Assembly: GCA_963737995.1 (NCBI GenBank)
Contig: CAVTUV010000011.1
Coordinates: 13,684 to 77,683, forward strand
Source: an uncultured Verrucomicrobiae bacterium
Lineage (GTDB): Bacteria; Verrucomicrobiota; Verrucomicrobiia; Chthoniobacterales; UBA10450
Direction: 5' to 3'
DNA length: 64,000 bases
The notes under the pieces are model-generated. The model ran no database searches. It worked only from the letters and a program-made list of their open reading frames with translations, and had not been told where the DNA came from. Shown here in pieces: positions 1 to 64,000 of this stretch. The stretch's first letter is position 1, and every line of letters begins with the position of its first letter. The position numbers and the translations under genes are program-made.

Positions 1-46
1 AAGCCTGACGAACGCGCGCGGCCCAACGGAGCCACTCTTTCTTTCT

Positions 47-168
47 TGTCATCCCGAGCCGCCTCGACTGCGAGGGACTCTCCAATTGCAATCTGCGGGT
101 TCTCGTTAGGGAAAACGTCCCTTGCCATGGCGAGCTCCTTCGCTGCGTTTTGCCGTATCAGGACGACA
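47..168. repeat. Intergenic inverted-repeat element, GTCATCC(C/T)GAGC...GCTCAGGATGAC family, copy 1 (diverged arms)
   Basis: Left arm TGTCATCCCGAGCCGCCTCGACTGCGAGGGACTC (47-80) pairs imperfectly with right arm GAGCTCCTTCGCTGCG...TATCAGGACGACA (132-168). Same termini and inner ATTGCAAT box as the copies at 3521, 26497 and 34384. Confidence 0.6.
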
Positions 169-226
169 AAATTGGAGGCAACTCGCCCTTGCTTGACCCT
201 GTCGCTGCAACACGGAAACTGCGTCG

Positions 227-1050
227 ATGGATCCAACTCCCGCGCCGCTCATCCCGCAGGATGGCTGGCATTGCCTGCATCTCTTTTACCGGATCGAGTA
301 CGGCCAATGGCAACTGCTCAACCCGACCGAGCAGCGCACAGCGAAGATCGCCCTCTCCACTCTGGTGCAGGAAACGCGCGCGCTCCCCTCGACGCAGCTG
401 CTCACCCTCAGCCAGGTGACGCCGAAAGCGGATCTCGGTTTCATGCTCATCACCCCGGATTTGCACGCCGCGAACCGGATCGAGAAACAGCTCACCCTGT
501 CGTTAGGCGCAGATGTCCTCGTGCCGGTTTACAGCTATCTTTCCCTCACCGAGGAGAGCGAATACACCACCAGCGACGAGCAATACGCGCAGACCCTTGC
601 GACCGAGCAGAAGCTCAAGCCTGCCACCCCGGAGTTCGAGGCCGCGATGCAGGATTTCCGCGAGCGGATGAAAAAATACCGGCAGGACCGGGTTTACCCG
701 ACGCTGCCCGATTGGCCGGTCGTTTGTTTCTACAACATGACCAAACGCCGCGGCGAAGAACACAACTGGTATTCCCTGCCCTTCGAAGAACGCCGCGACG
801 CTGATGGGCGGACACGCGCGCGTTGGCCGCCAATACGCCGGGAAAGTGAAACAGCTCATCACCGGCTCGACCGGTCTCGACGATGCCGAATGGGGCGTGA
901 CGCTTTTCGCGCACGACACCTTTCAGATCAAAGCGATCGTTTACCAGATGCGCTTCGACGAGGTGAGCGCGGCCTACGCCGACTTCGGCGAATTTTACAT
1001 TGGCATTCAGCTGCCCGCTCGACGAACTGTTCCGCCGCCTGCAGTTGTAG
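227..1050 (+). CDS. Chlorite dismutase-family haem protein (HemQ/ChdC-like coproheme decarboxylase); frame broken twice
   Basis: ORFs 227..1123 and 804..1148 join as ...[11 protein letters not shown] / [39 protein letters not shown]...[11 protein letters not shown] / [10 protein letters not shown]. One extra base near 799-800 and one in the CCC run 1014-1016. Corrected stop TAG 1048-1050. Confidence 0.75.
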
Positions 1051-1125
1051 CGTCGTGCTCGGTGATCGAATCGACCGTCGACGGTCGAGCAGGACGCCGA
1101 CTGCAGAGAAGGAGCGCGAGTAACA

Positions 1126-1210: not shown

Positions 1211-1403
1211 CCGGGGCGCATTTTCGCCCCTTGGATTCCGCCCCCGCCAAACTCGATCGGCGCGACAGGGTGAAAGGGAAAAGGCGCGAAAGCCCCGATC
1301 TCCGCGGCTCGATTGCGCTCGACAAGTGAATCTGGAGGCGCGCAAGACTTTCACTGAGGCGCATCAACTCTCGAGCCCGCTCTCGTTCGGTACTGGTTAG
1401 GGC

Positions 1404-2075
1404 CTAACGACGACTCAGGATCTGGGTGGTTTGCCGCACCTTGACGATGCTGTCGCCGGCAGGACCCCCGAAAATTTGTCCCCGGATAAATGATGCAGTC
1501 GCGCCCGATGATCGAGCCGGGATTGATCACGGCGTTGCAGCCGATCTCCGTGCGATCGCCGACGATCGCGCCGAATTTCCTCAGACCGGTCGCGATCATT
1601 CCATCGGTCGCGAGCACGGAGATCTCGGCGTGATCGAGCTTCACGTTGGAAAGATCACGCCCGCGCCGAGATGCGCTTTGTAGCCGAGAATCGAATCGCC
1701 GACGTAGCTGAAATGCGGAATCTGCGCGTCGTCGAAAATGATGCAGTTCTTGAACTCGCAGGAGTTCCCCATGACCACGCCGTTGCCGACAATGACGTTT
1801 TCGCGCACGTAGCAGCCGCTGCGGATGTGGCAATTTTCGCCGATCCAGGCCGGGCCTTTCAGCATCGCGCCTTGTTCGACAATCGTGCCGCTGCCGATAA
1901 AAACGGAGTCGCTGATGAACGGCTTGCCGACCAACTCGCCGAGAACCGCCGGCTTGAGCCGAAACTGCAGATAGCTCGGGATCTGCTTGAGCGCGTCCCA
2001 GACGTATTTGTCCGTCTCGAAAAGTTTCGAATGCGCGGTGTGCTCGAGCTCGAAAAATTCGGAGGCGCTAAACAT
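1404..2075 (-). CDS. Hexapeptide-repeat (left-handed beta-helix) acyl/nucleotidyl-transferase family protein; frame broken
   Basis: ORFs 1641..2075 and 1351..1833 join as ...VIVGNGVVMGNSCEFKNCIIFDDAQIPHFSYVGDSILGYKAHLGAGVI / LSNVKLDHAEISV...GAIVGDRTEIGCNAVINPGSIIGRDCIIYPGTNFRG. Breaks near 1665 and in the C5 run 1465-1469. The corrected frame stops at TAG 1404-1406, but the 3' end is uncertain. Confidence 0.6.
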
Positions 2076-2093
2076 ATCGTTAGGTAACTCCGT

Positions 2094-3510
2094 CTAGGCG
2101 CCGGCGCGCCGCGTGACGAGCTGTCCGTCCTTCGTGTCGCGCACATCCCAGCCCCGCGCTTGCAGCGCGTCGCGCAATTCATCACTTTTTTGCCAGTCTC
2201 TGTCAATCCGCGCCTGCGCTCGTTCCTCCGCCATGCGCACGATTTCCTCGGACGGTTTCGCTTCCCCCGCCTCCAGCGCGAGGACGCTGGTTGATCCGTT
2301 CCCACCATTTCAACCAGGCGAGCGCGCGCGCCGAATCGATCCCGCCATCCAGCTCGCGGTTGCTCTCGCGGATCTGCTCGAACAGATGGCCGAGCGCCGC
2401 GGAGATGTTGAGATCGTCATCGAGCGCCTCGGCAAACTTGTCGTCTTCGATCGCGATCGGCGCGTGCCGTTGCAAATTTCCCGCTCGCGCCGCTTCCCAG
2501 AGCCGGCGCAGCCATTCGTCGATCCGGGCGAGCGCCTGGCGCGCTTCTTCCAAGCCTTCCCAGGTGAAATTGAGCGGCGCGCGATAATGCACCCGGAGGA
2601 GCGCGTAACGAATTTCCCGGCCGCTGTAGCCTTTCGTCGAGCAGATCGCGCAGCGTATAAAAATTGCCTAACGACTTCGACATCTTCTGTCCGTCGACGA
2701 GGAGATGCGCGCAATGCAGCCAGTAGCGCACGAATGGCGCTCGCCGCTGCAGCCTTCCGATTGCGCGATCTCCGCTTCGTGATGCGGGAAAATATTGTCC
2801 ACCCCGCCGCAATGAATATCGATCTGTTCGCCTAACAATGACGTCGCCATCGCGCTGCACTCGATGTGCCAGCCGGGCCGGCCGCGTCCCCACGGGCTCT
2901 CCCACGCGACCTCGCCATCCTCTTCGTCCCACGCTTTCCAGAGCGCGAAATCGCCGACGTGTTCCTTGTCGTATTCGTCGCTTTTCACCCGGCCGGTCGA
3001 GCGCAATTCCGCGAGATCGAAATGCGCGAGGTGTCCGTAGTTCGGGAAGCGGTTGATCCGAAAATAAACCGACTTGTCTTCCGCCTGATAGGCGAGCTCG
3101 CGCTCGATCAAGGTCGCGATCATCGCGATCATCGCCTGGATGTAACGCTCCTCCGTCGCCGCGGGAAAAGCGTTGGCCGGCTTGATCTGGAGCGTGTCCA
3201 GATCCTCGAAAAACGCTTCCTTGAACGGCGCGGTGAATTCGCGCAGCGGAAGATTTGCCGCCCGGCTGCCGCGGATCGTCTTGTCATCCACGTCGGTCAG
3301 ATTCATCACCCGCTGCACCGTGAAGCCGCGCAGCTTCGAGATGCCGCTGCAGCAAATCCTCGAAAACGTAGGCGCGAAAATTTCCGATGTGCGCGCGGCT
3401 GTAAACCGTCGGGCCGCAGGTGTACATCTTCACCTCGCGCCCGGCTCGGATCGAGCGGGCGGAATTCTTCCAGCTCGCGCGAGTAGGTATTAAAAAATCG
3501 CAATCGCCAT
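2094..3510 (-). CDS. cysS: Cysteine--tRNA ligase; at least 4 one-base frame breaks
   Basis: ORF pieces 3306..3689, 2668..3318, 2417..2932 and 2203..2592 carry CysRS hallmarks in the right order: [66 protein letters not shown]-terminal tail ends ...[19 protein letters not shown]...* at TAG 2094-2096. The start is ATG 3508-3510 if one T of the T6 run is spurious, otherwise TTG 3503. Confidence 0.85.
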
Positions 3511-3644: not shown

Positions 3645-3685
3645 AGCCTGGCAACCGTGCGCCTCGTTAGGCTGGACAAGTTCAT

Positions 3686-4166: not shown

Positions 4167-4177
4167 CGTTCGTTAGG

Positions 4178-4931
4178 CTAGATTTGCAGATCGAGCAGAC
4201 CATTCGAGGCGACGATGCTGAATTTGTCCGGCGCGATCGCTGCGCGCCTGCATCTCGACTTTGCCGCCGGCGCTTTCCACGAGGAGCCAACCGGCGGCGA
4301 TATCCCAGAGGCTGATCCCCTGTTCGATGTAAGCGTCGAGCCGGCCGCAGGCGACGTAGGCCATGTCGAGCGCGGCGCTGCCTAACATTCGGCATTTGCG
4401 CACCCGATGCACCATCTTCTCGAGCAGCGGAAGCCCGGCCTCGATCGTCGCGCTCGTTTTGGAGAGGCCGACCGAGACGATTGCTTCCGCGAGATCGGCG
4501 CGCGCGCTGACGTGAAATTGCCTTGCCGTTCAAAAGCGGCGGCTGGCCTTTTTCGCCGCTCCAAAGTTCGTCGCGAATCGGATCGTAGATCACGCCGACG
4601 AATGATCTCGCCGCGAAAACGAAGCGCGATCGAGACGCAAAAATGCGGGATGCCGTAGAAGTAATTGACCGTCCCATCGAGCGGATCGACGACCCATTGA
4701 TGATCGCTCGACTGGTCGCCGACGATGCCTTCTTCGCCATAGAGCGCGTGCTCCGGAAAACGCCCTAACAAGATGCTCGGTGATCAGATTCTGCGCGAGA
4801 ACATCGACCTCGAGTTTGATGTCGTGCGCCGGTCGTGGCGTTGACCGTGAGCGGTTTCTGCGAAATGCGCGCGGAGCAGATTCGCCGGCGGCGCGGGCCG
4901 CTTCCTTGGCGGCGTCGAGATAATGCATCAC
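4178..4931 (-). CDS. Inositol monophosphatase family protein (SuhB-like); at least 3 frame breaks
   Basis: HLVRAFPEHALYGEEG, WVVDPLDGTVNYFYGIPHFCVSIAL, GSAALDMAYVACGRLDAYIEQGISLWDIAAGWLLVESAGGKV. The corrected C-terminus is ...FSIVASNGLLDLQI*, stopping at TAG 4178-4180. Confidence 0.8.
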
Positions 4932-5184: not shown

Positions 5185-6465
5185 TCAATCCGCAGAAGCG
5201 GTCTGTGAACAGTTTGTGAATAACTTCACTTTCATCGAGTCACTAATCGTCACGTTTTTTTTGTCAAACATTTTTCGCGCGACATCCAAAATTATTTTAA
5301 GCAATGCGCGCGCCAGCTCCGTTTTTTTTTCGCGCGGAAGTTTTTCGCGTCGCGCCGCTTTTGACAAAAATGACGCAGCTCGTTCTCGTCGGAATCCATT
5401 CCGATGTCGGCGCGACTGACATCATTCGCGACCAGGAGGTCGCAATTTTTCTCCGCTTAGCTTGCGTTGCGCGTTCGTTTCCAGCGCTCCGGTTTCCGCG
5501 GCGAAGCCGACCACAAAACAGTCGTGCGGCTGACTCGTTAGGCTGGCGAGAATGTCGCGCGTCGGGACGAGCTCGAGCGAAAAACGAGTGCGCTGCTTTT
5601 TCATTTTCTGCGGCGCGTAATGCGCCGGTTTGTAATCGCAAACCGCCGCGCACATGACGAAGACATCGCAGATCGGCGAATTGCGCTCGCGACGGCGTCG
5701 AACATCTCCTCGCCGCGTCGTGACGCGGACGATTTCCGCGCCGGCGGCGCGTGCGAGCGCGACCGGTCCGGAGATGAGGGTGACTTCGTGTTTTGCCTCC
5801 AGAGCGGCGGCCGCGATGGCGTAGCCCATTTTGCCGGAGGAGCGATTGCTCAGGTAACGCACCGGATCGAGCGGCTCGCGCGTCGGTCCGGCCGTGATGA
5901 GAAATTTCACGCGATCAGATTGTCCTGGCTGGCGAGGAGGAACTCGGCGCGGAAGGCGATCTCATCGACTTTCCACAGGCGGCCGATGCCTTCATAGCCG
6001 CAGGCGAGCATGCCGGCTTCCGGTCCGATGAATTCGACGCCGCGCGCGCCTAACGTCGCCACATTTTCCTTCGTCGCGGGGTGCTCCCACATTTTTCCGT
6101 TCATGGCCGGCGCGAGCAGAATCGGCGCGCGGGTGGCGAGCGCGATCGCGGCCAGCGGATGACCGGCCAGACCGTGCGCGAGCTCGGCGATGATGTGCGC
6201 GGTGGCGGGCGCGATGACGAGCAAGATCGGCGCGGTCGGCCAGCGCGATGTGTCCCGGATGCCAGCTTTGTTTTTCGTCGTAGAAACTGGTCGTGACCGG
6301 ATTCTTGGAGAGCGTCTGCAGAGTCAGCGGGGTGATGAACTCGGTCGCGTCCTTCGTCATCACGACAAAGACGTCGTGTCCTTGCTTGACGAGCAGGCTG
6401 GCCAGTTCGGCCGCTTTGTAGGCGGCGATCGAGCCGGTCACGCCGAGGACGACGCTTCTTTTCAT
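5185..6465 (-). CDS. coaBC: Phosphopantothenoylcysteine decarboxylase / phosphopantothenate--cysteine ligase (fused CoaBC, or adjacent coaC+coaB); frame broken
   Basis: CoaC part: VVLGVTGSIAAYKAAELASLL, LVIAPATAHIIAELAHGLA, APAMNGKMWEHPAT. CoaB part: KFLITAGPTREPLDPVRYLSNRSSGKMGYAIA, CAAVCDYKP, VGFAAETG, LLVANDVSRADIG, KLPREKKTELARALLKIIL. The junction at 5907-5910 reads GTGA. Further breaks near 6221, 5455 and 5370. Confidence 0.8.
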
Positions 6466-6556: not shown

Positions 6557-6567
6557 ATCGTATCTCG

Positions 6568-7183
6568 TTAGGCCAAAACCATCCGGCTGCTCAGATAACG
6601 TTCCGCGCCCATGATGTGGCGAAACTTGAGCAGATCCTCCTCCACCGAACGGCTGATGATGGTGTAGCGATAATCGCGCCAGAGTTCCATCTCCCGCGCC
6701 GCGGTCTGCAGACGCACTTCGATTTGTTCCTCCGTTTCCGTGCCGCGTTTCGTGAGGCGGCGGCGCAATTCCTCGAGATCGGGCGGCATGATGAAAACAT
6801 CGGCCAGCGCCTGGCGAACAAAAGCATCGTCAAAATCGCGGATCGCGGCCGCGCCCTGCGTGTCGATGTCGATCAGGACGTCGACGCCTTCCTGCAGATT
6901 GCTGACGATCGGTTCGCGCAAGGTGCCGTAATATTTTCCGTGCACGTTGGCGTGTTCGAGAAAATCTCCCGGCCGCGACGCGCGCGGCGAGAAAGTCGGC
7001 CTCGGAAAGAAAATGATAATCCTCGCCGTCGATCTCGCCGGCGCGCGGCGGGCGGGTCGTGCAGGAAACCGAGTAGACAAAATCGGGCGTCTGGCGGAGC
7101 GCGTCGCAGAGGGTGGACTTTCCCGCGCCGGAAGGCGCGGAGACGACGAAGAGAATTCCGTAGCGGCTGAATTGCTTACTCAA
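6568..7183 (-). CDS. gmk: Guanylate kinase; one frame break near 6960
   Basis: P-loop [58 protein letters not shown] start 7181-7183 overlaps the yicC stop. The TAA stop 6568-6570 lies inside a GCCTAACGA motif. Confidence 0.85.
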
Positions 7184-8056
7184 GATTTTGGATTTGCTCG
7201 CGAATCTTCTCCACCTCCGACTTGCAGGCCACGACGTGCCGCGAAATTTCCGCGTCGCCCGCTTTCGCGCCTAACGTATTCAATTCGCGCGAAATTTCCT
7301 GGGTGATAAATTCGAGGGTGCGCCCGACCGGCTCGTCTTTGCGCAGGTGATGGGCGAATTGCGCGAGATGGCTTTCGAGCCGGGTCAGCTCTTCGGAAAC
7401 ATCGGAGCGATCGGCAAAAAAGGCGACTTCCTTGAGCAGACGATCGTCGTTAGGCGCAAGCTCGAGCCCGGCCTTGTTGATCCGCTCGAGCAGAGCTGTC
7501 GCGATATTTCTCCGCCACCGCCGGATGCATTTTGCGCACTTCCTTGAGCGATTGGCGGACGACCTTGAGCCGATGAATCAAATCTTTGGCGAGATGTTTT
7601 CCTTCGCGCGTCCGCATTTTGATCAGCTCGTCGAGGGCGACGCCTGAGCGCTTCCTCGAGCGCGGGCCAGAGCTTCGTCGGGCTGCGAGGCCGTCCTCGG
7701 CGAAGCGCATCACGCCCGGCGCCTGCAGGATCATCCCGATGGTGATCTCGCCGGTCGACGCCCAGTTCCTCCTGCAAGGCGCGCATGCCTCGTGATAGGA
7801 ACGGGCCAGCGCGCGTGTCGAGCGCGAGCTTGCGCGCGCTGGCGCGCTCGCGTCGCAGGTCGACGACGACGTTGGTGCGTCCGCGCGTCAAGCGATCGCT
7901 CACCACCTGCCGGACGCGCGGCTCGAGCGCGCTCAGCTCGCGCGGCAGATTGATCACGATCGTCGCTCTGCTTGCGGTTGACCGAATTGACCTCGACGCT
8001 GATTTTCGCGCCGCCGCGCTCGCTTCGCCGCGGCCATAACCGGTCATGCTTCTCAT
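7177..8056 (-). CDS. yicC: YicC-family stress-induced protein; at least 3 frame breaks
   Basis: N-terminus [42 protein letters not shown]-terminal [19 protein letters not shown]...[24 protein letters not shown]...IQNLE*. Confidence 0.8.
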
Positions 8057-8111: not shown

Positions 8112-10503
8112 TCAGGGAGGGTTGGCTGCGCCGCGACCATGAGTCGGGTCCCGCAGCGGAATGCCCTGCCGATAGAGAGAAAGATCGATCTGCAAAAGCT
8201 GAGCGATCGACGACTGGCCTGCCGCCTCCGCTCGTTGCGCGCCTTCCTGGGCGGCCCTGGTCGCCTCCTGGAATTGTCCGGCCTCCGCATAGGCCGCCGC
8301 GAGCACGCGATAGATCATCAGGTTGCGACCGGCGGAAGTTTGTGAAGCGTGTTGCGCGAGATCGAGGGCGCGACCGCCATCGCGGAGCGCGTCCTCGGGC
8401 GCGGTCGAGAGAATCCAGGCGAGGGTGATTTCGGTGGCGATCCTGTCGGGCTGGAGGCGAAGCGTTTCCCGCCATTCGGCCATGGCGTCCGCAATTCGCC
8501 CTTGCTTGAGGAGGGCGAGCGCGAGGTTGTCGTGCATCTCCGCGTTGCCGGGCGCGATCTGCAATGCCGCCTGCCATTCTGCGATCGCCTCCTTCGTCAG
8601 GCCTTTCTTGAGGAGAGTGATGGCAAGGTTGTTCCGCGCGTCGGCATTTCGCGGATCGAGCCGAATCGTTTCCTGGAACTCCGCCATCGCGGGGTCAAGC
8701 TGACCGCTTCGCTGGAGCGCGATACCGAGGTTGTAATGCATCGCGATGTTGTTCCGATCCGCGTCGCGCGCTTTGCGAAAATACGGGATCGCCGCCGCGG
8801 CCTCGCCTTTTTGCAGCGAGCGCATTGCCGAGACCGGAGGCGGCATCGGAATCGTTAGGCCGGATCCGCAATGCTGCGCGGAATTCGGCGATGCTCAGAG
8901 GGAGCGCGCCCGTCCGGAAAAGCGCTTTGCCGAGGTTGCGACGCGTTTCACTGTCGTTAGGCCGAAAGCGAACCACTTCGCGGAAATGCTCGATCGCTTC
9001 TGGCAGCTCGCCCTTCTGCAAGAGGGCGTTGGCGAGATTGGTCAGGCCATTCGCGTCCCCGGGGCGAATCCGAAGGGCGGCGCGATCATGGGCGATGGCT
9101 TCGTCGAGGCGACCGATTTTTAGCAAAGCCGTTCCCAGACCGCGCTCCGCCACATCGTTCTCCTTCGTCACGGCGAGCGTGTGCCGCCAAAGGGCAACAG
9201 AGCTCGACCAATAATCCACTTGTCGCCATGCGAGTATCATCAATGCGACCACAACCAATGTTGCCGCGGCCATGAGGGGCGGTTGTCGCCGGCGCCAACC
9301 GGTGGTCAGATCAGCGACGCCCCAACTGATCATCAAATAGAGTCCGATTTGCGGCAGATAGGTGTAACGATCGGCGTGCGCCTGCCCTCCCACCTGCACG
9401 AGACCGATGACCGGCACGAGCATGCCGAGATACCAAAGCCAGCCGGTCACCAGATAGGGATAGCTCTTGCGAACTCTGACCGCCGCCACCGTGACCATGA
9501 GCAAGGCGAGCGAGGACGCGCCAGCCAGCCAGAGAGGAAGACTTCCGCGCGGGTGCGGATAAAAGACGGCCAGATCATGTGGCCAGACCATTTGCCGCAG
9601 GTAAACCCAGACGGTGACGAGCGCGTTTTCAATCCGCCATCGGAGTGGCAAATCGGTGACACCCTTGAGCGCGGGCTCCTGGGCAAAAACCGTTGCAACC
9701 GAAATTGCGGCTGTGAGCAGGAGAAGGGGCAGCTTTTCCAGAATCAGCCAGGAGAGCTTGATCGGCCTGCTCCCCTCGCTTTGGTGAGTTTCACCTGGTG
9801 GAGCAGAAGCGAAACGCCCGAGAGGCCAGTAATCCAAAAGTATGAGTAAGAAGGGAAGGGTTACCAGCATCGCCTTTGCGAGGAGACCGAGTGTGAGGGC
9901 GAGAACGACCAGGAGGTATCTACCGAGCGCGGGCGGCTTCCGCGCATAGCGGGAGTAAGCCCAGAGACCGAGGAGGAAGAAAACGCCGCTGAGCACGTCC
10001 TTCCTTTCCGAGATCCAGACGACCGACTCGGCGCGCAAGGGATGAATGGCGAAAAGGGCGGCAACGAATGCACTCCGCCAAAGCGCGCCGGTCATCGTTC
10101 TTAGAACAAGAAAAAGGAGCAGAACCGCCGAGGCGTGCAGAAGCACATTCACGAGATGGTAACCGCCGGCGCGCAGGCCGGACCACTGCGCATCCAGCAT
10201 GAGGGAGATCGAGGTCAGCGGATGCCAGTTGGCAACCAGCGGATGGGTGAAAGCCCTAACGAGTCCCGCCCGGGTCAACCCGTTGCTGATGAAAGGGTTT
10301 TGATAGACATAGAAGCTATCGTCGTAGTTGAAAAAATTGAAGCGGACCGTCCGGCCAAAGACGGCCAGGGTTATCACCACTAAGGCGAAACAGATAGCCG
10401 GAACCAGCCAGCGCGTGCTTCGACGGGGCGGAGGAGTCGGTGGTAGGTTAATTTTGGCCGCGGACCTGTCGCGCCGCCGGCGCTTCCCCGCCTTCTTCTT
10501 CAC
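8112..10503 (-). CDS. Multi-pass membrane GT-C-like protein (PMT_2/TMTC-like) with a long C-terminal TPR array; one frame break near 8818
   Basis: ORFs 8695..10569 and 8112..8846 join at ...GLGNAL / LQKGEAAAAIPYF. About 11 hydrophobic segments follow FFNYDDSFYVYQNPF, then at least 9 TPR units. The likely start is GTG 10501-10503, overlapping the upstream stop as GTGA. Confidence 0.65.
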
Positions 10504-11243: not shown

Positions 11244-12244
11244 CGTTTCGAAAGAGCGCTTCGCTGGGCCGGTAGTAGTTGCCCAAGCGCGCGGCGGTGG
11301 GGCGAGGGAACCGGCAGGTCAGCCAGCGCATGGAGCGGGAACCACTTTTGATGTTCGTTAGGCATACTTGCGTCGGACCGGGCGAACACGGCCAGCGTGA
11401 TGCGATGGCGGGTGAACGGGAATTCAAACTGCAGGAGCGGGCGACGCCGGGGCCTGGCCGCGAGGCGCGGGAGGATCCACATCCCGCGCCAGCGAGCGCG
11501 GGATTGCTCGAGGAGAATCCGGTTCCGCTGCAAGGTAAAGGCGTGTTGCTCGGTCAGACGAACGATCGACGCTCGCTTTCTTTTTCGTGGCAGCAATTCT
11601 GGTTGTTCGGCGCGGCAGAGTTTGCGGACCGGACAAGCTCCGCAACGTGGTTGGCGCGGCCGACAAATCATCGCGCCGAGGTCCATCAAAGCGGCGTTAT
11701 GGTAACGCCCGCCCGTGGCCGGAAGGAGAGCCTCGGCTGTGGTCCACAGATGCGCCTGGCCGGCGGCGGTATCGATCGGGGTTTTCCAATTCGTTAGGCG
11801 AGCGAGCAGGCGCGCGATGTTTGCGTCAACCACCGGCTCGGGCCGGTCGAAGGCAAAGCTGGCCAGCGCGCCGGCCGTGTAGCGCCCGATGCCGGGCAGT
11901 TGCGCGAGCTGCTCGGGAGCGTCCGGGAGTTTGCCGTCAAGATTCCGCGCCACAAAACGCGCGACCGCCCGGAGATTCCGGGCCCGGGCGTAATAGCCCA
12001 GGCCCTGCCAGGCGTGCAGCACATCGGGTTCATCGGCCCGAGCGAGCGCATTGAAATCGGGAAAACGCGCCAGCCAGCGCTCATAATACGGAAGGACGGT
12101 CGCGACCGTCGTTTGCTGGAGCATGAACTCCGAGACAAGAATCGCATACGGATCGCGACTCCGCCGCCACGGCAGGTCGCGCCCCTGAACCGCAAACCAG
12201 CGCTGCAAAGCAGATCGAAAAGCGCGGCGGTTGATCATTTCCAA
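11240..12244 (-). CDS. mutY: A/G-specific adenine DNA glycosylase
   Basis: Intact 334-aa ORF. HhH-GPD LPGIGRYTAGALASFAF, Fe-S cluster CRPRQPRCGACPVRKLC (C-x6-C-x2-C-x5-C), NUDIX-like C-terminal domain. Its stop overlaps the GT2 start as ATGA. Confidence 0.9.
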   Translation of the reverse strand: MEMINRRAFRSALQRWFAVQGRDLPWRRSRDPYAILVSEFMLQQTTVATVLPYYERWLARFPDFNALARADEPDVLHAWQGLGYYARARNLRAVARFVARNLDGKLPDAPEQLAQLPGIGRYTAGALASFAFDRPEPVVDANIARLLARLTNWKTPIDTAAGQAHLWTTAEALLPATGGRYHNAALMDLGAMICRPRQPRCGACPVRKLCRAEQPELLPRKRKRASIVRLTEQHAFTLQRNRILLEQSRARWRGMWILPRLAARPRRRPLLQFEFPFTRHRITLAVFARSDASMPNEHQKWFPLHALADLPVPSPHRRALGQLLPAQRSALSKR

Positions 12245-17238: not shown

Positions 17239-17979
17239 GTGGAAACCAGACTGCTCATCCTCAACGCCGATCCCGTTTTCGAGGATCGCGCGCTGGCCAT
17301 GTTCGACGCCATGCGGAAAGTCGAAACCCGCATCGTCCGCACTCTCTCGGAAGCCGTTTACATCCTGATGCGCGAAAATTTCGATCTTTTCGTGGTGGAA
17401 GGCGAACCCAGGGTCGCGATCGGGCAGGCGATCAATACGCGCCAGCATTTTCCATCGCTCGAGGTCATGTGCCTAACGGAAGAGCCGAACGATGCCGAGC
17501 TGCTGCAAGAAGCCGACCAGCAAAATATCGAGTTGGTCGCGACCAACTGCAGCGATCGACAGCTGCGCAGCCGGTTGCGGCGCATCGTGTCGGCTTTTGA
17601 AAGACAATCCGGCACACCCGCCGAAGGCATCGATCCCTGCCACTCGCTCGTCGGCAACCTCAACCAATTTTCCGCCGCCGAGATTCTGCAAATGAGCTGC
17701 ATGAGCCAGCGCAGCGGGCGCTTCACCTTTAAATCGAGCCGCGGCAACAGCGAAATTTATCTGCACCACGGGATGGTGCGGCACGCGGTCTACAGCTCGC
17801 TCGAAGGCGAAGGCGCGGTGGCTGAGATCTTCCGCTGGCGCCAGGGCCGATTCTATTTTGAAGAAGGCATCATTAGCCAGGTGCAGACGGTCAATCGGCC
17901 GTGGACGCACCTGTTAATCGATAATCTGCAAAAACTCGACGAGACCATGCAATTAACCAGCGTCCCAGGAAAACGATGA
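17239..17979 (+). CDS. Receiver-like domain protein with a C-terminal DUF4388-type domain
   Basis: Intact 246-aa ORF. N-terminal CheY-like layout (LLILNADP...FDLFVVE). C-terminal GNLNQFSAAEILQMSCMSQRSGRFTF...GEGAVAEIFRWRQGRFYFEEG. Confidence 0.6.
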   Translation: METRLLILNADPVFEDRALAMFDAMRKVETRIVRTLSEAVYILMRENFDLFVVEGEPRVAIGQAINTRQHFPSLEVMCLTEEPNDAELLQEADQQNIELVATNCSDRQLRSRLRRIVSAFERQSGTPAEGIDPCHSLVGNLNQFSAAEILQMSCMSQRSGRFTFKSSRGNSEIYLHHGMVRHAVYSSLEGEGAVAEIFRWRQGRFYFEEGIISQVQTVNRPWTHLLIDNLQKLDETMQLTSVPGKR

Positions 17980-26647: not shown

Positions 26648-26672
26648 AAATTGGGAAGCGCGCCGTCTCTCG

Positions 26673-31322: not shown

Positions 31323-31335
31323 GCAAGATCGCGCC

Positions 31336-37919: not shown

Positions 37920-38479
37920 GTCCTAAGGGGCGCTTATCCTAATCGGAAGCGCGCCAAATGCCAAAACTCGATTTGGGAAGAGAAATGAGGCTCGGCGCCC
38001 GCCGCCATAACCTCAAAGGACGGAAGGCGCCGACCTGAAATTACCCAAGGGCAACGAAACCGATGAGGCGCAAGACTCGCAATCGGAGCGGATTCCGGTC
38101 TTGGAAGAATTCTCATCACCAAAACGCGGCCGGCAGTCTTAACCGCCATCGCCGATTCATCGGAAACCTGACCGATCCCGCCGCGACGGATGCGACGGCG
38201 CTCGCAAACGCCGCGACCCTAACGAACCGACTGCCGTGGTCGGACCCGGCGCTTCCGCCGGCAGAGTCGGGGCGCCTCCAGCATTTTTTCGCCGGGATGG
38301 CGCCGGAGAGTGGGCTGGCCTTCGTCGTCGCCATGTCGAGCCCACCGCGCCAACATCAAGGAAAGCTCGCTGTCCCGAGCGCGCGCGAAGTTGTGCGCTA
38401 CGCGAGGCAGTGGGTCGGCCAGGAACGTTAGGCGCGCCAGTCCTCCCGCGCGGGCGCGAGGGTTAACGCCGCGCAGCAG

Positions 38480-41955: not shown

Positions 41956-42967
<1,012 letters not shown>

Positions 42968-46273: not shown

Positions 46274-49229
<2,956 letters not shown>

Positions 49230-49347
49230 CGTTCTCGCGGCCGAGCTTGTCCGAGGCGCGACCGCTCCCGGAGCAGCATTGCGCCGCTGCGATCATGTTG
49301 GCGCGCTCAACCGGAAGCGAAAGGCGACGAGACCAGGTCTCGTTAGG

Positions 49348-50132
49348 CTAGACGAGCTGGATATTACCCTCGACGTAGGTGACGGCTTCGCCGCCGATCG
49401 AGACGCGCTCGCCGCGATCGCCGCAGAAGAGTTCGCCGCCGCGCGGGGAGATCTGGCGGGCGAAGAGTTCTTTCTTCCCGAGGCGTTGCGACCAGTAGGG
49501 AATCAGCGTGCAATGGGTCGAACCGGTCACCGGATCTTCCGGAATGCCGGCGGCAGGCGCGAAGTAGCGCGAGACGAAATCGCAATCGTCCCCGGCGCGG
49601 TCACGACGACGCCTTGCGCATCCAATTCCGCGACTCGCTGCAAGTCGGGTTTGATCGCGGCGACCTCCTGCTGCGACGGAAAGATCGCGATGTAATCGCG
49701 GCCTTGCAGAAGCTGTTCCGGGTCGCGCGCCGAGCGCCGCCGCCAATTCGTTAGGCAGGCTGACCGCCTCCGCCGGCAGCGAAGGGAAATCGAGCACCAA
49801 CCGTTCCCCGTCCCGCGTCACCGTCAGCTCGCCGCTCTTGCTTTGGAAACGCACCGACGTCCTCGGCGTAGCCGCGATGATGAAAAAGCACATGGGCCGA
49901 GGCGAGGGTGGCGTGTCCGCAAAGATCCACTTCCACCGTCGGCGTCATCCAGCGCAGGTCGAAATGCTCGCCGCGCGGGACGACGAAGGCCGTCTCCGCC
50001 AGATTGTTTTCCGCCGCGATCGCCTGCAGCCGCGCGTCCTCGCAGCCATTCCTCGAGGAGACAAACGCCGGCCGGATTGCCCGCGAAAGCGCGTTTGGCG
50101 AAAGCCGCGATTTCGAAATAGGGAATTTTCAT
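49348..50132 (-). CDS. PhzF-family isomerase/epimerase; at least 3 frame breaks
   Basis: [74 protein letters not shown]. Confidence 0.75.
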
Positions 50133-50161: not shown

Positions 50162-51211
50162 CTAGCCTAACGACGCCAGGTCGATCACGAAACGATACTT
50201 CACGTCCTGCTTCAGCATCCGTTCATACGCTTCGTTGATCTGGTCCATCCGGATCATTTCGATGTCGGAGGTGATCCCGTGTTCGGCACAGAAATCGAGC
50301 ATCTCCTGCGTCTCGGCGACGCCGCCGATAAGCGATCCGGTGAGCTGACGGCGCGGTGCGATCAAGTTGAAGGCTGCGAGCGGCACCGGGTTCGGCGGGA
50401 TGCCGACGAGGGTCAAAGTGCCGTCACGTTTCAGAAGCGCCATGTAGGCGTTGAGGTCGTGTTGCGCGGAGACGGTATCGATAATGAAGTCGAAACTGCG
50501 GGCGTGCGCTTCCATCTGCGTTTCGTCCTTCGAGAGGATGACTTCGTCGGCACCGAGACGGAGCGCGTCTTTCGCTTTGTTGGGTGAAGTTGTGAAGAGC
50601 GCCACGTGCGCTCCAAAGGCGTGGCTAAATTTGACCGCCATATGTCCGAGCCCGCCGAGCCCGACGACTCCGATCTTGTGGCCTTTGCCGATCTTGCGCA
50701 AGCGCAGCGGCGAATAGGTCGTGATCCCGGCGCACAAGAGCGGCGCGCTGGCCGCCAGGTCGAGTTTGTCCGAGATTCGGAGGACGAAATTCTGGTCCAC
50801 CACGATGCTTTTCGAATAGCCGCCGTAGGTAATTCCGCCGGTGTGCGGGTCCGCACTGTTATAGGTCAAAGTCATTCCGTTCTCACAAAACTGCTCGAGA
50901 TCGTCTTTGCAGCTCGAACAGGTGCGACAGGAATCGACCAGGCATCCGACGGCCGCCCGATCGCCTTCGCGAAATTTCTTAACATCCTTCCCGACCTTGA
51001 CCACGCGCCCGACAATTTCATGTCCCGGCACACAGGGGTAAATGGTGCCGCCGCCCCATTCGTTGCGGGCGATGTGCAGGTCGGAATGGCAAACCCCGCA
51101 AAAAAGGATCCCAATCTGGACGTCGTTAGGTGCGGGATCGCGCCGTTCAAAGGAAAAAGGAGCGAGCGGCGTGCTCTGCGAGTGGGCAGCGTAGGCTTTG
51201 GTGGAATACAT
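50162..51211 (-). CDS. Zinc-dependent NAD(P) alcohol dehydrogenase (cinnamyl-ADH/YahK-like)
   Basis: Intact. GVCHSDLH, GHEIVGRV, structural zinc site CRTCSSCKDDLEQFC, Rossmann motif GVVGLGGLGHMAVK. The start is taken at MYSTKAY. Confidence 0.85.
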   Translation of the reverse strand: MYSTKAYAAHSQSTPLAPFSFERRDPAPNDVQIGILFCGVCHSDLHIARNEWGGGTIYPCVPGHEIVGRVVKVGKDVKKFREGDRAAVGCLVDSCRTCSSCKDDLEQFCENGMTLTYNSADPHTGGITYGGYSKSIVVDQNFVLRISDKLDLAASAPLLCAGITTYSPLRLRKIGKGHKIGVVGLGGLGHMAVKFSHAFGAHVALFTTSPNKAKDALRLGADEVILSKDETQMEAHARSFDFIIDTVSAQHDLNAYMALLKRDGTLTLVGIPPNPVPLAAFNLIAPRRQLTGSLIGGVAETQEMLDFCAEHGITSDIEMIRMDQINEAYERMLKQDVKYRFVIDLASLG

Positions 51212-54938: not shown

Positions 54939-55317
54939 TCACCGCTCCTCTCCCGCTGCGCGATATCGCTTCGCCGTCTCCACGTATTTCCTCGCCCAAT
55001 GCGCGATGCCGGCTTGTTCGGCGTGGCTCAGTTGCCGGACGATTTTTCCCGGTGAACCGAGCACGAGAGAACCTGACGGCACATTCATGCGCGCGGTCAC
55101 GAGCGCGTGGGCCCCAATGATCCTGAAGGTTGCTAAGCGGGCCGATCTCGATTCGATTGATGTCGCCTCGGAGCAGGGCGCCGTACCAGACACTTGCTTC
55201 CGCGCCTAACGACACCTCGCCGATGATCGTGGCGTTGGGCGCGACGTGCGCGGTGGGATCGACCCGCGGCCCCGCGCGCAGGCGCTGCTCGATTGTTTCC
55301 ACCCCGCCCCTCTCCAT
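54939..55317 (-). CDS. Gamma-carbonic-anhydrase-like hexapeptide protein (YrdA/PaaY family); frame break and apparently missing its central ~40 codons
   Basis: VDPTAHVAPNATIIGEVSLGAEASVWYGALLRGDINRIEIGPLSNLQD, then directly IIGAHALVTARMNVPSGSLVLGSPGKIVRQL. The usual His-containing middle turns are absent. Confidence 0.55.
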
Positions 55318-55567: not shown

Positions 55568-56560
55568 ATGAGTCCAATAGCAATCGGTCTGATTGGCTTC
55601 GATGGGGCAACGGCCACGCATCTTACCAGCGCAGCCGACGCCTTGGCGAGCGCCGCGTTGGATGACGGATTCGGTGGTCGTGTTTGCTGCTACAAAGTCT
55701 GGATCCTGGGCCTAACGAACGCGCCGTTCGTTTCTGAAGCTGGGATCACATTCCAGCCGCAGAAGTCCCTGGCGACCGCGCCTCCGCTCGATACGATCAT
55801 CGTCGCAGGCGGCGATGGAGTGCGCCGGCCTCAGGTGCAGGACCGGCTGGCGGAATGGATCCTGCAGCGCTTCTCCGAAACCCGGCGCATCGCTTCGATC
55901 TGTTCCGGCATTTATGCCCTCGCGCCAACCGGCCTGCTCGATGGCCGCGAGGTTACCACGCATTGGCGTTGCAGCCGGTTGCTGCAGGAACGTTACCCTG
56001 CGTTGCGCGTTGGTCACAAACGTTCGCTGGTCAAGGACGGTCCATTTTATACCTCCGCCGGGCTCACCGCCGGGATCGGTCTTGCTTCCGCGCTCATCGC
56101 TGAAGACTACGGCCAGCAGGTGGCACAATCGGTTGGTCGCAACCTCATGACCCATCTTCTCCCAGCGGCGCAGCCTAACGAATCGCCGGACCGGCTCGAC
56201 TGCGGGAGCCAGTCGACCGATCGCCTCGGCCACCTTGTTCCCTGGATCATGCGCAATCTCGATCAATCTCTGACGGTGGAGATGCTGGCGCGACGGGCCG
56301 GGATGTGTCCTTCGCATTTTACCCGGGCGTTCAAGAGTGTCTTTGGGGCGACCCCGGGCGATTTTGTCGAGAACCTGCGCCTGAACGAAGCCCAGCGCCG
56401 CCTTGCTTCGCGTCACAAGACGTTGCGGAGCGTGGCTGCCTCGGTCGGATTTACCGACGCCAACGCTTTTCGGCGCGCTTTTGCGCGACGTTTCGGAACC
56501 ACACCCAGACTCCGCCCCGACCGCTTAGCGACCAAAGACTTTGAATTAGTCGGACGCTAA
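55568..56560 (+). CDS. GlxA-family transcriptional regulator (DJ-1/PfpI domain + AraC-type HTH), copy 1
   Basis: Intact 330 aa. IASICSGIYALAPTGLLDGREVTTHW, then C-terminal AraC HTH (LARRAGMCPSHFTRAFKSVFG...VGFTDANAFRRAFARRFG). Confidence 0.8.
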   Translation: MSPIAIGLIGFDGATATHLTSAADALASAALDDGFGGRVCCYKVWILGLTNAPFVSEAGITFQPQKSLATAPPLDTIIVAGGDGVRRPQVQDRLAEWILQRFSETRRIASICSGIYALAPTGLLDGREVTTHWRCSRLLQERYPALRVGHKRSLVKDGPFYTSAGLTAGIGLASALIAEDYGQQVAQSVGRNLMTHLLPAAQPNESPDRLDCGSQSTDRLGHLVPWIMRNLDQSLTVEMLARRAGMCPSHFTRAFKSVFGATPGDFVENLRLNEAQRRLASRHKTLRSVAASVGFTDANAFRRAFARRFGTTPRLRPDRLATKDFELVGR

Positions 56561-56799
56561 TGTTCGTTAGGCGTTAGACTGGGGCGACAATCGGACGGCT
56601 GGTCGCGTTCAAAGATTATCGGCCTGATCTGGGCCCCAGTCACGGTTGAATCCGTTCCACAGCGGCGAATCACCTTGGCCGCGTTCGTAAGCAGAAAATC
56701 GCGCTGGCCGGAAAGATCGGATTTACGGCCTCACGCTCAATTGGCGTTGCCCCTATAGCTATGTCTCGAAACCTAACCAAACACCAAATGGAGAAACTA

Positions 56800-61756: not shown

Positions 61757-62136
61757 TGCTAGTGCACTGTAACAAAAGAAACTGGACGAGCGGCCTCTGG
61801 CTCTGTAGAGCCGACGGCTCGGAGAGAAGCTCGTCCCTCCGGAGGGGCTCGCCGCGGCGAGCCCAGGATCAAGAGAGCGACTCTGTATCACAACTTGAGG
61901 TTGCAGTGCCCTAATTGTGGCCAGCGCGAGGCTCGGCTAACTCACGATTCGAGTGTGACTTCGGGTTACCATTTGCGGACGCGACCTTCAGACCAAGTGG
62001 GGGCTGGCAGCAGTTTTTCTTTCCTATGGTAAGTTTATCGCACGGTATGAAGAATGGAGATGAGGTCGGGTCCGGAGCATCGCGGTTCAAACCGCGCACA
62101 CGCCGGATACGCCGACGGTTGATCATCGCCTTCGAT

Positions 62137-63615
62137 ATGATTCGGCTCGACCGCAGCGCAGCGGAACCGCTCCACCTTCAACTTTATCATCGAATTCGTG
62201 AAGAGCTGAGGATTGGTCGTTTCACTGGTAGCTCGGCGCGACTCCCGTCATCGCGCGCGCTTGCCGCCCAACTGGGAATTTCGCGGCTGGCGGTGAAGCT
62301 CGCTTTTTCCCGCCTTAATGCGGAAGGATACGTGCGGTCCAAAGTTGGTTCTGGGACCTTCGCGGCAAATCCTCTTCCCGAGAACTTTTTGTATGCGCCG
62401 AAGGCTGAGTTGTTTCCGCCACTGGAGCGGGCGCCTCGCCTTTCGAAGCGCGCCCTGGCCATACCCGACCACCGGCGCAGAGAACAACTCGCTGTCGGCG
62501 TCGCCGGACCACCGGGCGTTACGCTGATTCCGGGACAGCCGGCGTTCGACGAGTTTCCGATCGACACCTGGGAGAAATTGCGCGCGCAAATTCTCGCGAA
62601 AAAGGGCGCTCATCTCCTGCGCTACGCTTCGAGTCAGGGCGATGCGGACCTGCGCAAGGCGATAGCTACTTATTTGTGCGATTTTCGCGCGGCTCGCTGT
62701 CACCCTGATCAGGTGATCGTGGCCGCCGCCACTCAGCAGACGATGCTGATCAGTGCTCTGGCTCTGATTAATCAGGGCGAGGCGGTCTGGATCGAGGATC
62801 CGGCTTATCACCAGGCGCGCCGGACGTTCACCCTCGCCGGTGCCCGCCTCGTTCCGAAAGCGGTCGATGCGGAGGGGATCGTGCTGACTCGCTCGCCTAA
62901 CGAGCGCGCTCCTCGGCTCATCTACGTCACACCGTCTCACCAATTTCCTCTTGGTGTGACGATGAGCGTGGCGCGCCGTAAAGCGTTGATCGAATTTGCG
63001 CGCGCGAACAATTCCTACGTTTTCGAGGACGACTATGACTCAGAGTTCCGCTTCGCCGGACCGCCGCTACCCTGTCTCCAGGGACTCGATAATTCCGGAG
63101 CGGTGATTTATTCGGGCACGGTGAGCAAGATTCTCCATCCCGCTCTGCGCTTGGGATATCTGGTCGTTCCGGAGCAACTGGTCGAACCGATGACCAAGGT
63201 GCGAGCCGCGATCGACCAGCACTCGTCCCCGATCGATCAAGCGACCCTCGCTCGCTTTCTGAACGAGGGTTTTTTTCTCAGTCACGTTAAGCGCATGCGA
63301 AAACTCTATGCCGCGCGGCGAGACTTCTTCATCCAAGAATTTAACAAGTTACTCGGCCATTACTTCGAGCTTCAGATTCCGGAGACCGGGTTGCTCTTTG
63401 TCGCTTGGTTGCGGCGGGGCGAAGAGCTGGATTGGCTCCGCGAGGTCGGCGCTGAAGTTGGAATTACCCCGGTCTCGCTCTCTTACTTTTGTATCAAAGC
63501 TGAGCTAAAACCGGCACTCGTCTTCGGTTTCGCAGCCTGGACCCCGGCCCAGATTCGTGAAGGCCTGACAAGATTTGCGGGAGCGCTGAAAAGGAAAACG
63601 AAACGATCGCATTAG
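62137..63615 (+). CDS. MocR/PdxR-type regulator (GntR wHTH + fold-type-I aminotransferase domain)
   Basis: Start taken at MIRLDRSAAEPL. wHTH LPSSRALAAQLGISRLAVKLAFSRLNAEGYV. Aminotransferase-like body with SGTVSKILHPALRLGYLVVP (PLP-lysine context). Confidence 0.8.
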   Translation: MIRLDRSAAEPLHLQLYHRIREELRIGRFTGSSARLPSSRALAAQLGISRLAVKLAFSRLNAEGYVRSKVGSGTFAANPLPENFLYAPKAELFPPLERAPRLSKRALAIPDHRRREQLAVGVAGPPGVTLIPGQPAFDEFPIDTWEKLRAQILAKKGAHLLRYASSQGDADLRKAIATYLCDFRAARCHPDQVIVAAATQQTMLISALALINQGEAVWIEDPAYHQARRTFTLAGARLVPKAVDAEGIVLTRSPNERAPRLIYVTPSHQFPLGVTMSVARRKALIEFARANNSYVFEDDYDSEFRFAGPPLPCLQGLDNSGAVIYSGTVSKILHPALRLGYLVVPEQLVEPMTKVRAAIDQHSSPIDQATLARFLNEGFFLSHVKRMRKLYAARRDFFIQEFNKLLGHYFELQIPETGLLFVAWLRRGEELDWLREVGAEVGITPVSLSYFCIKAELKPALVFGFAAWTPAQIREGLTRFAGALKRKTKRSH

Positions 63616-63804
63616 CGGCCAGGCAATGCTGGACGCTTTGTTTGCGTGTGGGTAGCCGGCGTCGTGCGTTTCGGAAACTCGCGTGGGGCCTCGCTCGAAC
63701 TGAGGTGGAAAATGGCCGAGGCGGCCAAAACCTTCAGATGATCTGCCCTTGCCAGGTCGGGCCGCCCTTCTATGCTCGGCACGGAACTATTCCGTATCCC
63801 TTAA

Positions 63805-64000
63805 GTGACCATCCCGACCGAGCCGATTGGCAGTATTCCTCGGCCCCTTCGTTTGGTCGAAGCGCTCGCGCAAAGCGATTGCGATGATCCCGCCCTCGAC
63901 CCGCTTTACGAGGAAGCGATCCGCGACACGATTGCGCGCTTTGAAGAAACCGGCTCGCCTGTGGTCACCGATGGGGAACAGCGCAAGTATCATAACTTTG
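63805..64000 (+). CDS. Cobalamin-independent methionine synthase (MetE C-terminal domain)-like protein, 5' part only (runs off the window)
   Basis: A GTG start gives (M)TIPTEPIGSIPRPLRLVEAL...LYEEAIRDTIARFEETGSPVVTDGEQRKYHNF, the typical N-terminal signature of the short MetE-like family. Confidence 0.55.
   Translation, partial: MTIPTEPIGSIPRPLRLVEALAQSDCDDPALDPLYEEAIRDTIARFEETGSPVVTDGEQRKYHNF

Follow-up and report, generated by a model that had tools for sequence, protein, structure and literature searches.

The contig CAVTUV010000011.1 of an uncultured Verrucomicrobiae bacterium carries, in the 64,000 nucleotides between its positions 13,684 and 77,683 (hereafter the window, meaning this whole stretch), a non-palindromic 9-nucleotide word at a frequency far above expectation. 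The word, TCGTTAGGC/GCCTAACGA (word A), occurs 43 times by exhaustive k-mer count, 26 times on the forward (+) and 17 times on the reverse (-) strand, where dinucleotide-preserving shuffles predict 0.27 copies (maximum 2) and an order-3 Markov model predicts 0.79. It recurs as the top word in related Chthoniobacterales, and a second, unrelated word (word B) is found in sister lineages. It is proposed, with a probability of roughly 45%, that word A is a lineage-specific genomic word, read as double-stranded DNA and spread and kept by a sequence-specific drive resembling that of uptake sequences. The term ‘uptake-sequence-like’ is meant here as a description of the statistics of the word.

Abundance and distribution of word A

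Word A is the commonest 9-mer of the window; the runner-up, a GC-rich, low-complexity word, has 25 copies. Its 8-mer core, expected 2.4 times, is present as CGTTAGGC 30 times on the (+) strand and as GCCTAACG 20 times, and 43 of these 50 copies carry the same extra 5′ T. The recount agrees with a first-pass annotation of this DNA, made by eye, which had put the exact cores at about 50, their expectation at two to three and the unit at 9 nt or more. All core coordinates in that annotation were found again, two of them shifted by one (30058 instead of 30057, and 32950 instead of 32951). Its total of about 24 one-mismatch copies was too low, the window holding 54 such copies of the 8-mer and 43 of the 9-mer, but the 12 one-mismatch coordinates that it cited are all correct. 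The commonest near-word is TCGTCAGGC, with 11 copies. When exact copies were aligned on the word, first 70 and then 289, the flanks of the 289 copies carried at most 0.15 bit, with a slight preference for A at -2 and for purines at +1 to +4. Because the flanks hold almost no information, word A is not a fragment of a longer repeat.

For comparison, 80 genomic loci around gcvP were taken from species representatives, together with loci from exact-protein look-ups, and all were screened uniformly for over-represented 8–10-mers. Word A reaches P = 1e-57 in the window, 1e-31 in L081 (Joint Genome Institute (JGI) metagenome 3300044699; 21 copies in 19.7 kb), 1e-22 in L001 (Chthoniobacterales LS_FP_2_bin.102, assembled with MEGAHIT; 15 copies in 12.6 kb) and 1e-15 in L066 (Chthoniobacterales La5_metabat2.155; 12 copies in 21.6 kb). 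In the identical screen, the highly iterated palindrome HIP1 reaches 1e-28 and 1e-17 in two cyanobacterial control loci (L004, L005), and the top word of typical loci reaches only 1e-6 to 1e-8. Enrichment is weaker yet significant in L082 (5 copies in 21.5 kb) and L083 (4 copies in 22 kb), and L084, L002, L003 and 70 or more loci of other phyla hold 0–1 copies each. Word A is restricted to one clade, with densities that fall from 1.2 to 0.05 per kb. In related Chthoniobacterales, independent short-read loci from metagenome-assembled genomes (MAGs) have it as their top word, and in more distant relatives it is weaker. Extrapolated from density, the genome-wide total would be hundreds to thousands of copies.

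Some control loci have strongly over-represented 9–10-mers of their own, which may be longer repeats or dispersed words, namely L073 (Pirellulaceae), L031 and L029 (Myxococcales) and L050 (Pedobacter); as listed, these words are ATTATTCACG (10–12 copies), CACTCCTCGC (12 copies) and AGGAGTGCGA, and CCCGTAACCC (7 copies). A candidate third word, GAATGACGAA in the word-rich metagenome contigs L159 and L166, was rejected as a local tandem heptamer array rather than a dispersed word, with (GAATGAC)n clusters at 1586–1700 and 3635–3740 of L159 and at 1827–1925 and 3375–3475 of L166. L166 is an inverted duplication of itself, with mirrored word positions at 791/4506, 2510/2787 and 2615/2681, and is probably an assembly artefact.

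JGI metagenome contigs were also scanned for two copies of word A 80–110 nt apart. At least 35 word-rich contigs (198 kb, 54–61% G+C) are found among the 120 stretches listed, the other listed matches being tandem duplications or chance pairs. After removal of two contigs with copies on the same strand only and atypical G+C, the density in the remaining 193 kb of listed contigs is 0.69 copies per kb, not counting the ascertained pair. Confinement to one contig, an adaptor or an assembly artefact had been named in advance as outcomes that would discredit the word; instead it is the top word in independent MAGs and is present on dozens of metagenome contigs.

The same pair patterns matched 27 viral contigs in IMG/VR, essentially all with bare pairs or local duplicates; none is word-rich and the maximum is 4 copies, although the phages of this clade are perhaps rare in the collection. 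L219 (IMGVR_UViG_3300010366_000067, 54% G+C) has a cluster of four TCGTTAGGC copies, alternating in strand, in some 230 nt at 3683–3910, and the viral contigs L215 and L224 hold 4 copies of word A each. All three contigs may derive from a provirus or a host segment of the word-rich clade.

Copies of word A are spread without evident order. The spacing distribution, which had been put forward as a check on the word, is random in the window (Poisson-like, with a coefficient of variation of 0.98), and only 2 pairs lie less than 200 nt apart. The strand splits of individual loci are 26:17, 9:12, 7:8 and 7:5, and a runs test on strand in the window is not significant (P=0.16). Relative to gene direction, Viterbi segmentation of the window, L001 and L066 places 34 copies antisense, 25 sense and 11 in non-coding DNA, and database gene calls in intact loci give a split of 10:11. 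The orientations are therefore balanced and independent of gene direction, as the first-pass annotation had held. A 2:1 gene-direction bias, obtained by a crude local-frame method, was discarded once it had shrunk to these values. Similarly, a strand switch near 34–40 kb, considered as a trace of an origin or terminus or of coupling to gene direction, was rejected on the runs test, on a GC skew without a clear switch and on pooled data that are non-polar.

In a codon-aware null, synonymous codons were shuffled while the protein sequence and codon usage were kept, including the rare codons that the word itself contributes. Against this null, the coding copies of word A number 33 versus about 0.1 in the window, 14 versus 0.2 in L001 and 12 versus 0.24 in L066, an enrichment far above what the shuffles yield in each. 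TTA, CTA and AGG make up 0.2–0.4% of codons each, and word A alone accounts for 17% of the TTA, 13% of the CTA and 14% of the CCT codons of the window. All four stop-free frames are used, TCG TTA GGC giving S-L-G, GTT AGG giving V-R, CCT AAC GAx giving P-N-D/E and CTA ACG giving L-T. The frames had been described correctly from the letters (SLG, xVRx, PN[DE] and xLTx all occur), as had the peptide contexts KMSKSLGN in CysRS, DALLGA in IspF, NTLGAK in YicC and KGSLGA in glycerate kinase. Peptide selection and base composition are ruled out as causes of word A by the shuffles together with the use of four frames, and the earlier suggestion that selection acts on the DNA word itself is supported by the codon-aware null. 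A role for the TAA/TAG of the word as a favoured stop or gene-end position was also rejected, since open reading frames (ORFs) end there merely because the word has stops in two frames. No significant intergenic excess of word A was detected.

Origin of word sites, and a second word in sister lineages

The history of individual sites was followed in a five-genome alignment of the gcvP region and, for site conservation, in all BLAST-aligned segments. In the gcvP region some word sites are common to the word-rich genomes and others are private; one site is present in the window, L001 and L066 alike. Some words have arisen synonymously, by a change of Leu CTC to TTA in L066 and of Leu CTG to CTA in L001, with ordinary codons in the word-free relatives. 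This orthologue comparison, put forward earlier as a check, shows that synonymous sites are recruited, and it bears out the entry of rare Leu codons (TTA and CTA, with AGG also used). Amino-acid changes contribute as well, P-N-D standing where word-free relatives have P-S-T/E.

Once formed, the sites persist. Between word-rich genomes, 36 of 71 word sites (51%) are conserved exactly, whereas control 9-mers from these alignments reach about 11%, a difference of about 5-fold; from L001 to L081 the figures are 7 of 8 against 12%. In word-poor relatives, 0 of about 40 word sites are conserved. The commonest alternative at sites that are not shared is TCGTCAGGC, which differs by one C/T transition at position 5, followed by TCGTTAGGG. 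Word A is thus created repeatedly by ordinary mutation in any tolerant frame, often through a C-to-T change from TCGTCAGGC, and then retained. For TCGTCAGGC the expectation is about one copy in 64 kb, and because this precursor is rare, a pure mutational sink cannot explain the abundance of word A.

Density differs up to 5-fold between close relatives, from 0.23 per kb in L082 (64.5% G+C) through 0.56 in L066 and 0.67 in the window to 1.07 in L081 and 1.19 in L001. At sites in common, word A in L001 and L081 often corresponds to TCGTCAGGC in L082 and the window, which suggests ongoing gain or decay of the word tied to G+C drift.

The Verrucomicrobia locus L003 (AV79) has no word A; its top word is AGATCGACA. 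An 8.7-kb metagenome contig rich in word A, L191, carries 17 copies of GATCGACA beside 9 of word A. Word B is accordingly defined as AAGATCGACA, with the extended consensus W-A-GATCGACA-W; it contains GATC and TCGA and reaches up to 1.3 copies per kb. Its phosphoglucomutase assigns L191 to the same Verrucomicrobiota/Spartobacteria group, and an identical protein is encoded on a 266-kb contig. A piece of that contig, L232, holds 29 copies of word B in 22 kb, where 0.3 are expected (P=1e-46), together with 13 of word A. Its relatives hold 25 of B and 10 of A (L233, 80% identity), 29 of B and none of A (L234, 75% identity) and 11 of B and none of A (L235, 74% identity). Word B is also found in L171.

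Word B behaves as word A does on each of these counts. Its strand splits are 17:17, 19:11, 16:14 and 7:7, and clean gene calls place 39 copies sense and 41 antisense. It is read in five frames; about 15% of copies are non-coding or at gene edges, and the word is enriched about 2.7-fold in the small non-coding fraction. Conservation of word B sites amounts to 18 of 20, 8 of 11 and 8 of 9 in different comparisons, against 23%, 11% and 11% for the respective controls. The word A sites of L232 and L233 are all shared between the two (7 of 7), and none (0 of 7) is present in the B-only relatives, whose orthologous sequence bears no evident resemblance; judged from these alignments, the L232/L233 sub-lineage seems to have acquired word A in addition to B.

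Genomes accordingly occur as A-only, B-only (L003, L234, L235) and A+B (L191/L232, L233), the clade of the window being A-only, with the 9-mer of word B once in 64 kb. This mosaic is compatible with every model that treats the specificity factor as a gainable module. A gene for an S1/P1-type nuclease is conserved a few kb from the phosphoglucomutase gene, at 14500–15900 in L232, 17412–18851 in L233 and 16282–17742 in L234.

Candidate explanations for the words

The DNA uptake sequences (DUS) of Neisseriaceae (GCCGTCTGAA and its dialects) and the uptake signal sequences (USS) of Pasteurellaceae (AAGTGCGGT / ACAAGCGGT) together form the DNA uptake-enhancing sequences (DUES). Like these, words A and B are 9–10 nt long and non-palindromic, and occur about once per kb (0.6–1.1% of DNA) in both orientations. 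Genes and intergenic DNA both hold them, every stop-free frame is used despite the unusual codons and residues that this entails, and related species share them at conserved positions, with different words in related lineages. Word length, density, the mix of coding and non-coding copies and the dialects match the published definition of uptake-enhancing sequences. Unlike DUES, the words belong to Verrucomicrobiota and not to Proteobacteria, and have neither inverted pairs nor a link to terminators. Whereas the dialects of DUS and USS are 1–2 nt apart, words A and B are unrelated and can coexist at full density in one genome; and whereas DUES have a receptor, ComP in Neisseria and the predicted ComN in Pasteurellaceae, a receptor for words A and B would be putative. 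TCGTTAGGC and AAGATCGACA share no core with GCCGTCTGAA, (A)AGTGCGGT or ACAAGCGGT, and the first-pass description of a word behaving like DUS, USS or HIP1 in a different sequence has held up.

If the words act in uptake, the competence machinery would preferentially import word-bearing fragments, through a receptor that would be a word-binding surface protein such as a minor pilin. Homologous recombination would then replace word-less alleles with word-bearing ones. Word B would represent a second specificity, and A+B genomes would have two. Molecular drive of this kind is accepted for the DUS of Neisseria and the USS of Pasteurellaceae. With peptide selection, composition, artefact, repeat remnants and polar motifs excluded by test, what is left is a sequence-specific process on double-stranded DNA that favours word-bearing alleles. 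The uptake reading is ranked first because no mechanism other than biased uptake followed by recombination has been shown by experiment to produce a profile of this kind.

Several observations weigh against an origin in uptake. About 80% of the copies of word A are coding and only some 15–23% are non-coding. Around half of the known DUES lie in terminators, an association that word A lacks, and neither of the two close pairs (<200 nt) in the window folds into a hairpin or terminator. No competence or pilus genes (PilQ, ComEA, ComEC, DprA) or DNA-processing genes are present within the 64-kb window, and no report of natural transformation in Chthoniobacterales was found in the literature searched. 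Among DUS and USS there is no precedent for the coexistence of two unrelated words, each at full density, that L232 and L233 show. Furthermore, the hallmarks of the words are not specific to uptake, because HIP1 shows the same statistics without an established link to it. In favour of uptake, the viral contigs lean, weakly, to recombination into the chromosome over a host-wide mutational bias, and the phages of the clade may merely be rare in that collection.

The case of HIP1 leads to the alternative that uptake plays no part and that the word is made from near-words, or shielded from mutation, by a modification/repair system (for example a methyltransferase paired with a nicking or Vsr-like enzyme) or through biased gene conversion, separate mobile systems specifying A and B. 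This is unlikely, but it accounts for much of the data. HIP1 (GCGATCGC) is comparably over-represented side by side in L004 and L005, lies in genes and is conserved at orthologous sites; the profile of words A and B matches that of HIP1 in the control loci, and both words are conserved in position above background. The main alternative to word A, TCGTCAGGC, is a C/T transition, the type of change handled by deamination/repair systems; the patchy A-only, B-only and A+B pattern fits mobile modification modules that are gained and lost; and GATC and TCGA within word B are typical methylation targets. However, HIP1 is a palindromic octamer with a Dam-type site, whereas word A is not a palindrome and lacks an obvious methylation core, and word B shares the GATC but is likewise non-palindromic; non-palindromic words of 9–10 nt are unusual as targets of methyltransferases or Vsr-type enzymes. 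No methyltransferase, Vsr or restriction genes occur within the 64-kb window, and from so rare a precursor a mutational sink could not yield an enrichment of more than 50-fold. A host-wide repair bias should also mark resident phage, and none of the 27 viral contigs, a set in which these phages may be scarce, is word-rich.

A little more doubtful is a binding-site array, in which the site of an abundant DNA-binding protein is selected at thousands of positions for nucleoid structure, for segregation or as a marker of self-DNA in defence or recombination. The strict 9-bp core, strand symmetry, random spacing and positional conservation of the sites suit this proposal, as does the weak one-sided purine-rich extension, which is typical of protein footprints, and lineage-specific words could follow paralogous binding proteins. 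The 5-fold spread in density among close relatives is hard to square with an essential architecture, and no nucleoid or segregation protein is known to depend on an exact 9-mer in coding sequence at about one copy per kb, paid for in rare codons and residue changes. A polar signal for recombination or translocation, such as Chi (RecBCD/AddAB) or the FtsK orienting polar sequences (KOPS), is highly improbable. These too are short, non-palindromic, over-represented chromosomal words, and the window has a mild 26:17 strand excess; but they are strongly co-oriented with replication (about 75–90% on one strand per replichore) and few-fold enriched, whereas word A is non-polar and enriched 50–150-fold, at about one copy per kb, far above known Chi or KOPS. 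A 75:25 polarity of the Chi/KOPS kind would predict about 70% same-strand copies; in the metagenome contigs, the copies beyond the ascertained same-strand pair fall 57 on the same and 76 on the opposite strand, the strand splits of A and B are as given above, and the runs test is not significant.

There is almost no probability that the word is an artefact or a fragment of a mobile repeat, whether adaptor, assembly error or remnant of a miniature inverted-repeat transposable element (MITE) or repetitive extragenic palindromic (REP) element. The window is indel-rich and a palindromic family adjoins four copies of the word, and REP and MITE elements likewise have many dispersed copies. Such elements are longer, intergenic and conserved in their flanks, whereas word A is 9 nt long, mostly in genes, with random flanks, and it lies outside the arms of the palindromic elements, which are a genuine REP/MITE-like family separate from it. 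Moreover, independent short-read MAGs and many metagenome contigs of different projects have it as their top word, and its copies stand in frame within conserved protein motifs through which orthologues align.

Taken more broadly, it is tentatively suggested that Chthoniobacterales, which rank with the most abundant bacteria of soil, hold at least two independent and combinable word-recognition systems, A and B. These may represent the first sequence-specific uptake outside Proteobacteria with coexisting specificities. Alternatively, they may reflect a novel mechanism, for instance self-marking or gene conversion directed by sequence, by which arbitrary words of 9–10 bp are written and maintained throughout a chromosome. 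Maintained, hyper-abundant genomic words are already known; what is new here is the phylum, the sequences, the lack of terminator pairing and the co-residence of unrelated words. In open-access full text, no earlier description of word A or B was found, nor any of uptake or over-represented motifs in Verrucomicrobia, Udaeobacter, Spartobacteria or Chthoniobacterales, and the literature matches to either word were primers and oligonucleotides only. The first-pass annotation, too, had known of no description.

A 2025 survey lists uptake-enhancing sequences from Neisseriaceae and Pasteurellaceae only, and why sequence-specific DNA uptake, known from these two proteobacterial families, should be so rare is an old open question. 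If the uptake reading is true, a third and a fourth unrelated word in a globally abundant, uncultured soil phylum would mean that uptake specificity evolves repeatedly, and would indicate frequent within-lineage recombination in soil Verrucomicrobiota. If it is not, these non-palindromic words would provide a fresh handle on the unsolved problem posed by HIP1. The words can serve as a marker for assigning metagenome contigs, for flagging foreign DNA and for designing DNA that uncultured hosts might take up, and since genomes come as A-only, B-only and A+B, simple phylogenetic profiling can be used to find the specificity factor.

Word positions and other features of the window

Among the copies of word A read in sense, those encoding S-L-G are at 500..508 (+), 2666..2674 (-), within KMSKSLGN of CysRS, 20014..20022 (+), 21515..21523 (-), 40909..40917 (+), 42627..42635 (-), in LpxD and kept in L001, L081 and L082, and 50165..50173 (-), near a gene end. 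The V-R frame is used at 23650..23658 (-; L-V-R-L), 25106..25114 (+; L-V-R-Q), 25418..25426 (+; F-V-R-R) and 31316..31324 (+; L-V-R-Q), the last at a segment boundary; xVRx calls at 3664..3672 (+) and, in a short segment, at 4170..4178 (+) are doubtful.

Antisense copies in the L-T frame lie at 5535..5543 (+; S-L-T-S), 11791..11799 (+; R-L-T-N), 32949..32957 (+; C-L-T-T), 48652..48660 (-; G-L-T-K in GcvP, kept in L001, L066, L081 and L082) and 55710..55718 (-; G-L-T-N). Those reading P-N-D are at 7447..7455 (+; A-P-N-D), 8852..8860 and 8954..8962 (both + and R-P-N-D), 15829..15837 (-; S-P-N-D), 44096..44104 (-; P-P-N-D, kept in L001 and L081) and 46949..46957 (-; R-P-N-D in GcvP). P-N-E is read at 11355..11363 (+; M-P-N-E), 28366..28374 (+; S-P-N-E), 30057..30065 (+; L-P-N-E), 30953..30961 (-; A-P-N-E), 33851..33859 (+; R-P-N-E), 40785..40793 (-; E-P-N-E), 49748..49756 (+; L-P-N-E), 56173..56181 (-; Q-P-N-E) and 62895..62903 (-; S-P-N-E).

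Non-coding copies are found on the (+) strand at 6565..6573, 24350..24358, 26670..26678, 29550..29558, 39637..39645, 49340..49348 and 56564..56572, and on the (-) strand at 1402..1410, where the call is non-coding, 34348..34356, which is kept in L082, and 55204..55212. The 8-mer core alone, preceded by a base other than T, stands as CGTTAGGC at 19519..19526, 37673..37680, 38426..38433 and 46905..46912 (all +). On the (-) strand, where it is written GCCTAACG on (+), it is at 6048..6055, 7269..7276, within NTLGAK of YicC, and 17471..17478.

At 61% G+C, the window carries a GcvP fragment with 89% identity to that of a MAG entered as ‘Chthoniobacterales bacterium’; identity to entries of Spartobacteria and Candidatus Udaeobacter is about 75%. 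These matches point to a soil-type, uncultured source in the order Chthoniobacterales of Verrucomicrobiota. The genes of the window are ordinary chromosomal housekeeping genes, including those for CysRS, IspF, CoaBC, YicC, Gmk, a MutY-like glycosylase and RNase HII/III, together with LpxD, GcvP, glycerate kinase, glycosyltransferases and a TonB receptor.

The window is rich in indels. A frameshift-tolerant, seven-state Viterbi segmentation gives 61 same-strand frame switches, or 9.5 per 10 kb, where the short-read MAG loci have 0.9–4. CysRS (1300–3500, -) is spread over three frames, GcvP (46356–49224, +) is likewise frameshifted, and the gene calls of L081 and L082 are fragmented as well. Relative to L001, the window has a net excess of single-base insertions, mostly outside homopolymers, in alignments that are noisy at 80% identity. 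The frameshifts probably reflect an unpolished long-read assembly, although they may be real and indicate pseudogenisation. The indels leave the word counts unaffected, save that some near-words may have been miscalled as true words. A clustering of frameshifts at words, considered as a hint of base modification, was rejected: the median distance is 302 versus 470 nt (P=0.015), but the 6 frameshifts within 40 nt, against 3.4, are not a significant excess. The weak proximity is probably due to rare codons that confuse the segmentation.

A separate intergenic palindromic family, with elements of about 70–150 nt, occurs in the window at 46–~110, 3520–3645, 6488–6556, 26496–26648 and 34383–34509, and also at 9305–9390 and 21546–21660 of L002 and at 12153 and 14823 of L083; other word-rich loci have none. 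Its termini are TTGTCATCC[CT]GA... and ...TC[AG]GGATGACAA, with inner arms GAGGTCCCTCGCC, and one element, which has no Rfam family, folds into a long hairpin (-69.7 kcal/mol, z=-6.3). Four of the 10 element termini in the window have an exact, outward-facing word A 10–28 nt outside them, at 3664 (19 nt), 6565 (10 nt), 26670 (23 nt) and 34348 (28 nt), and the word lies at a variable distance outside the conserved arms.

The sole Rfam/ARAGORN matches in the window are tRNA-Ser(GGA) at 1126–1212 (+) and tRNA-Thr(CGT) at 55349–55423 (-), and no relevant Rfam family was matched apart from these tRNAs. The longest intact ORF, at 34563–37919 (-), encodes 1118 residues with GH18-like, polysaccharide deacetylase and GT2 domains, and has neither a copy of word A nor a frameshift over 3.3 kb. 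It lies in the second largest word-free gap of the window (34348–39637), the size of which is within Poisson expectation. This ORF is syntenic in L082 and is probably not foreign DNA.

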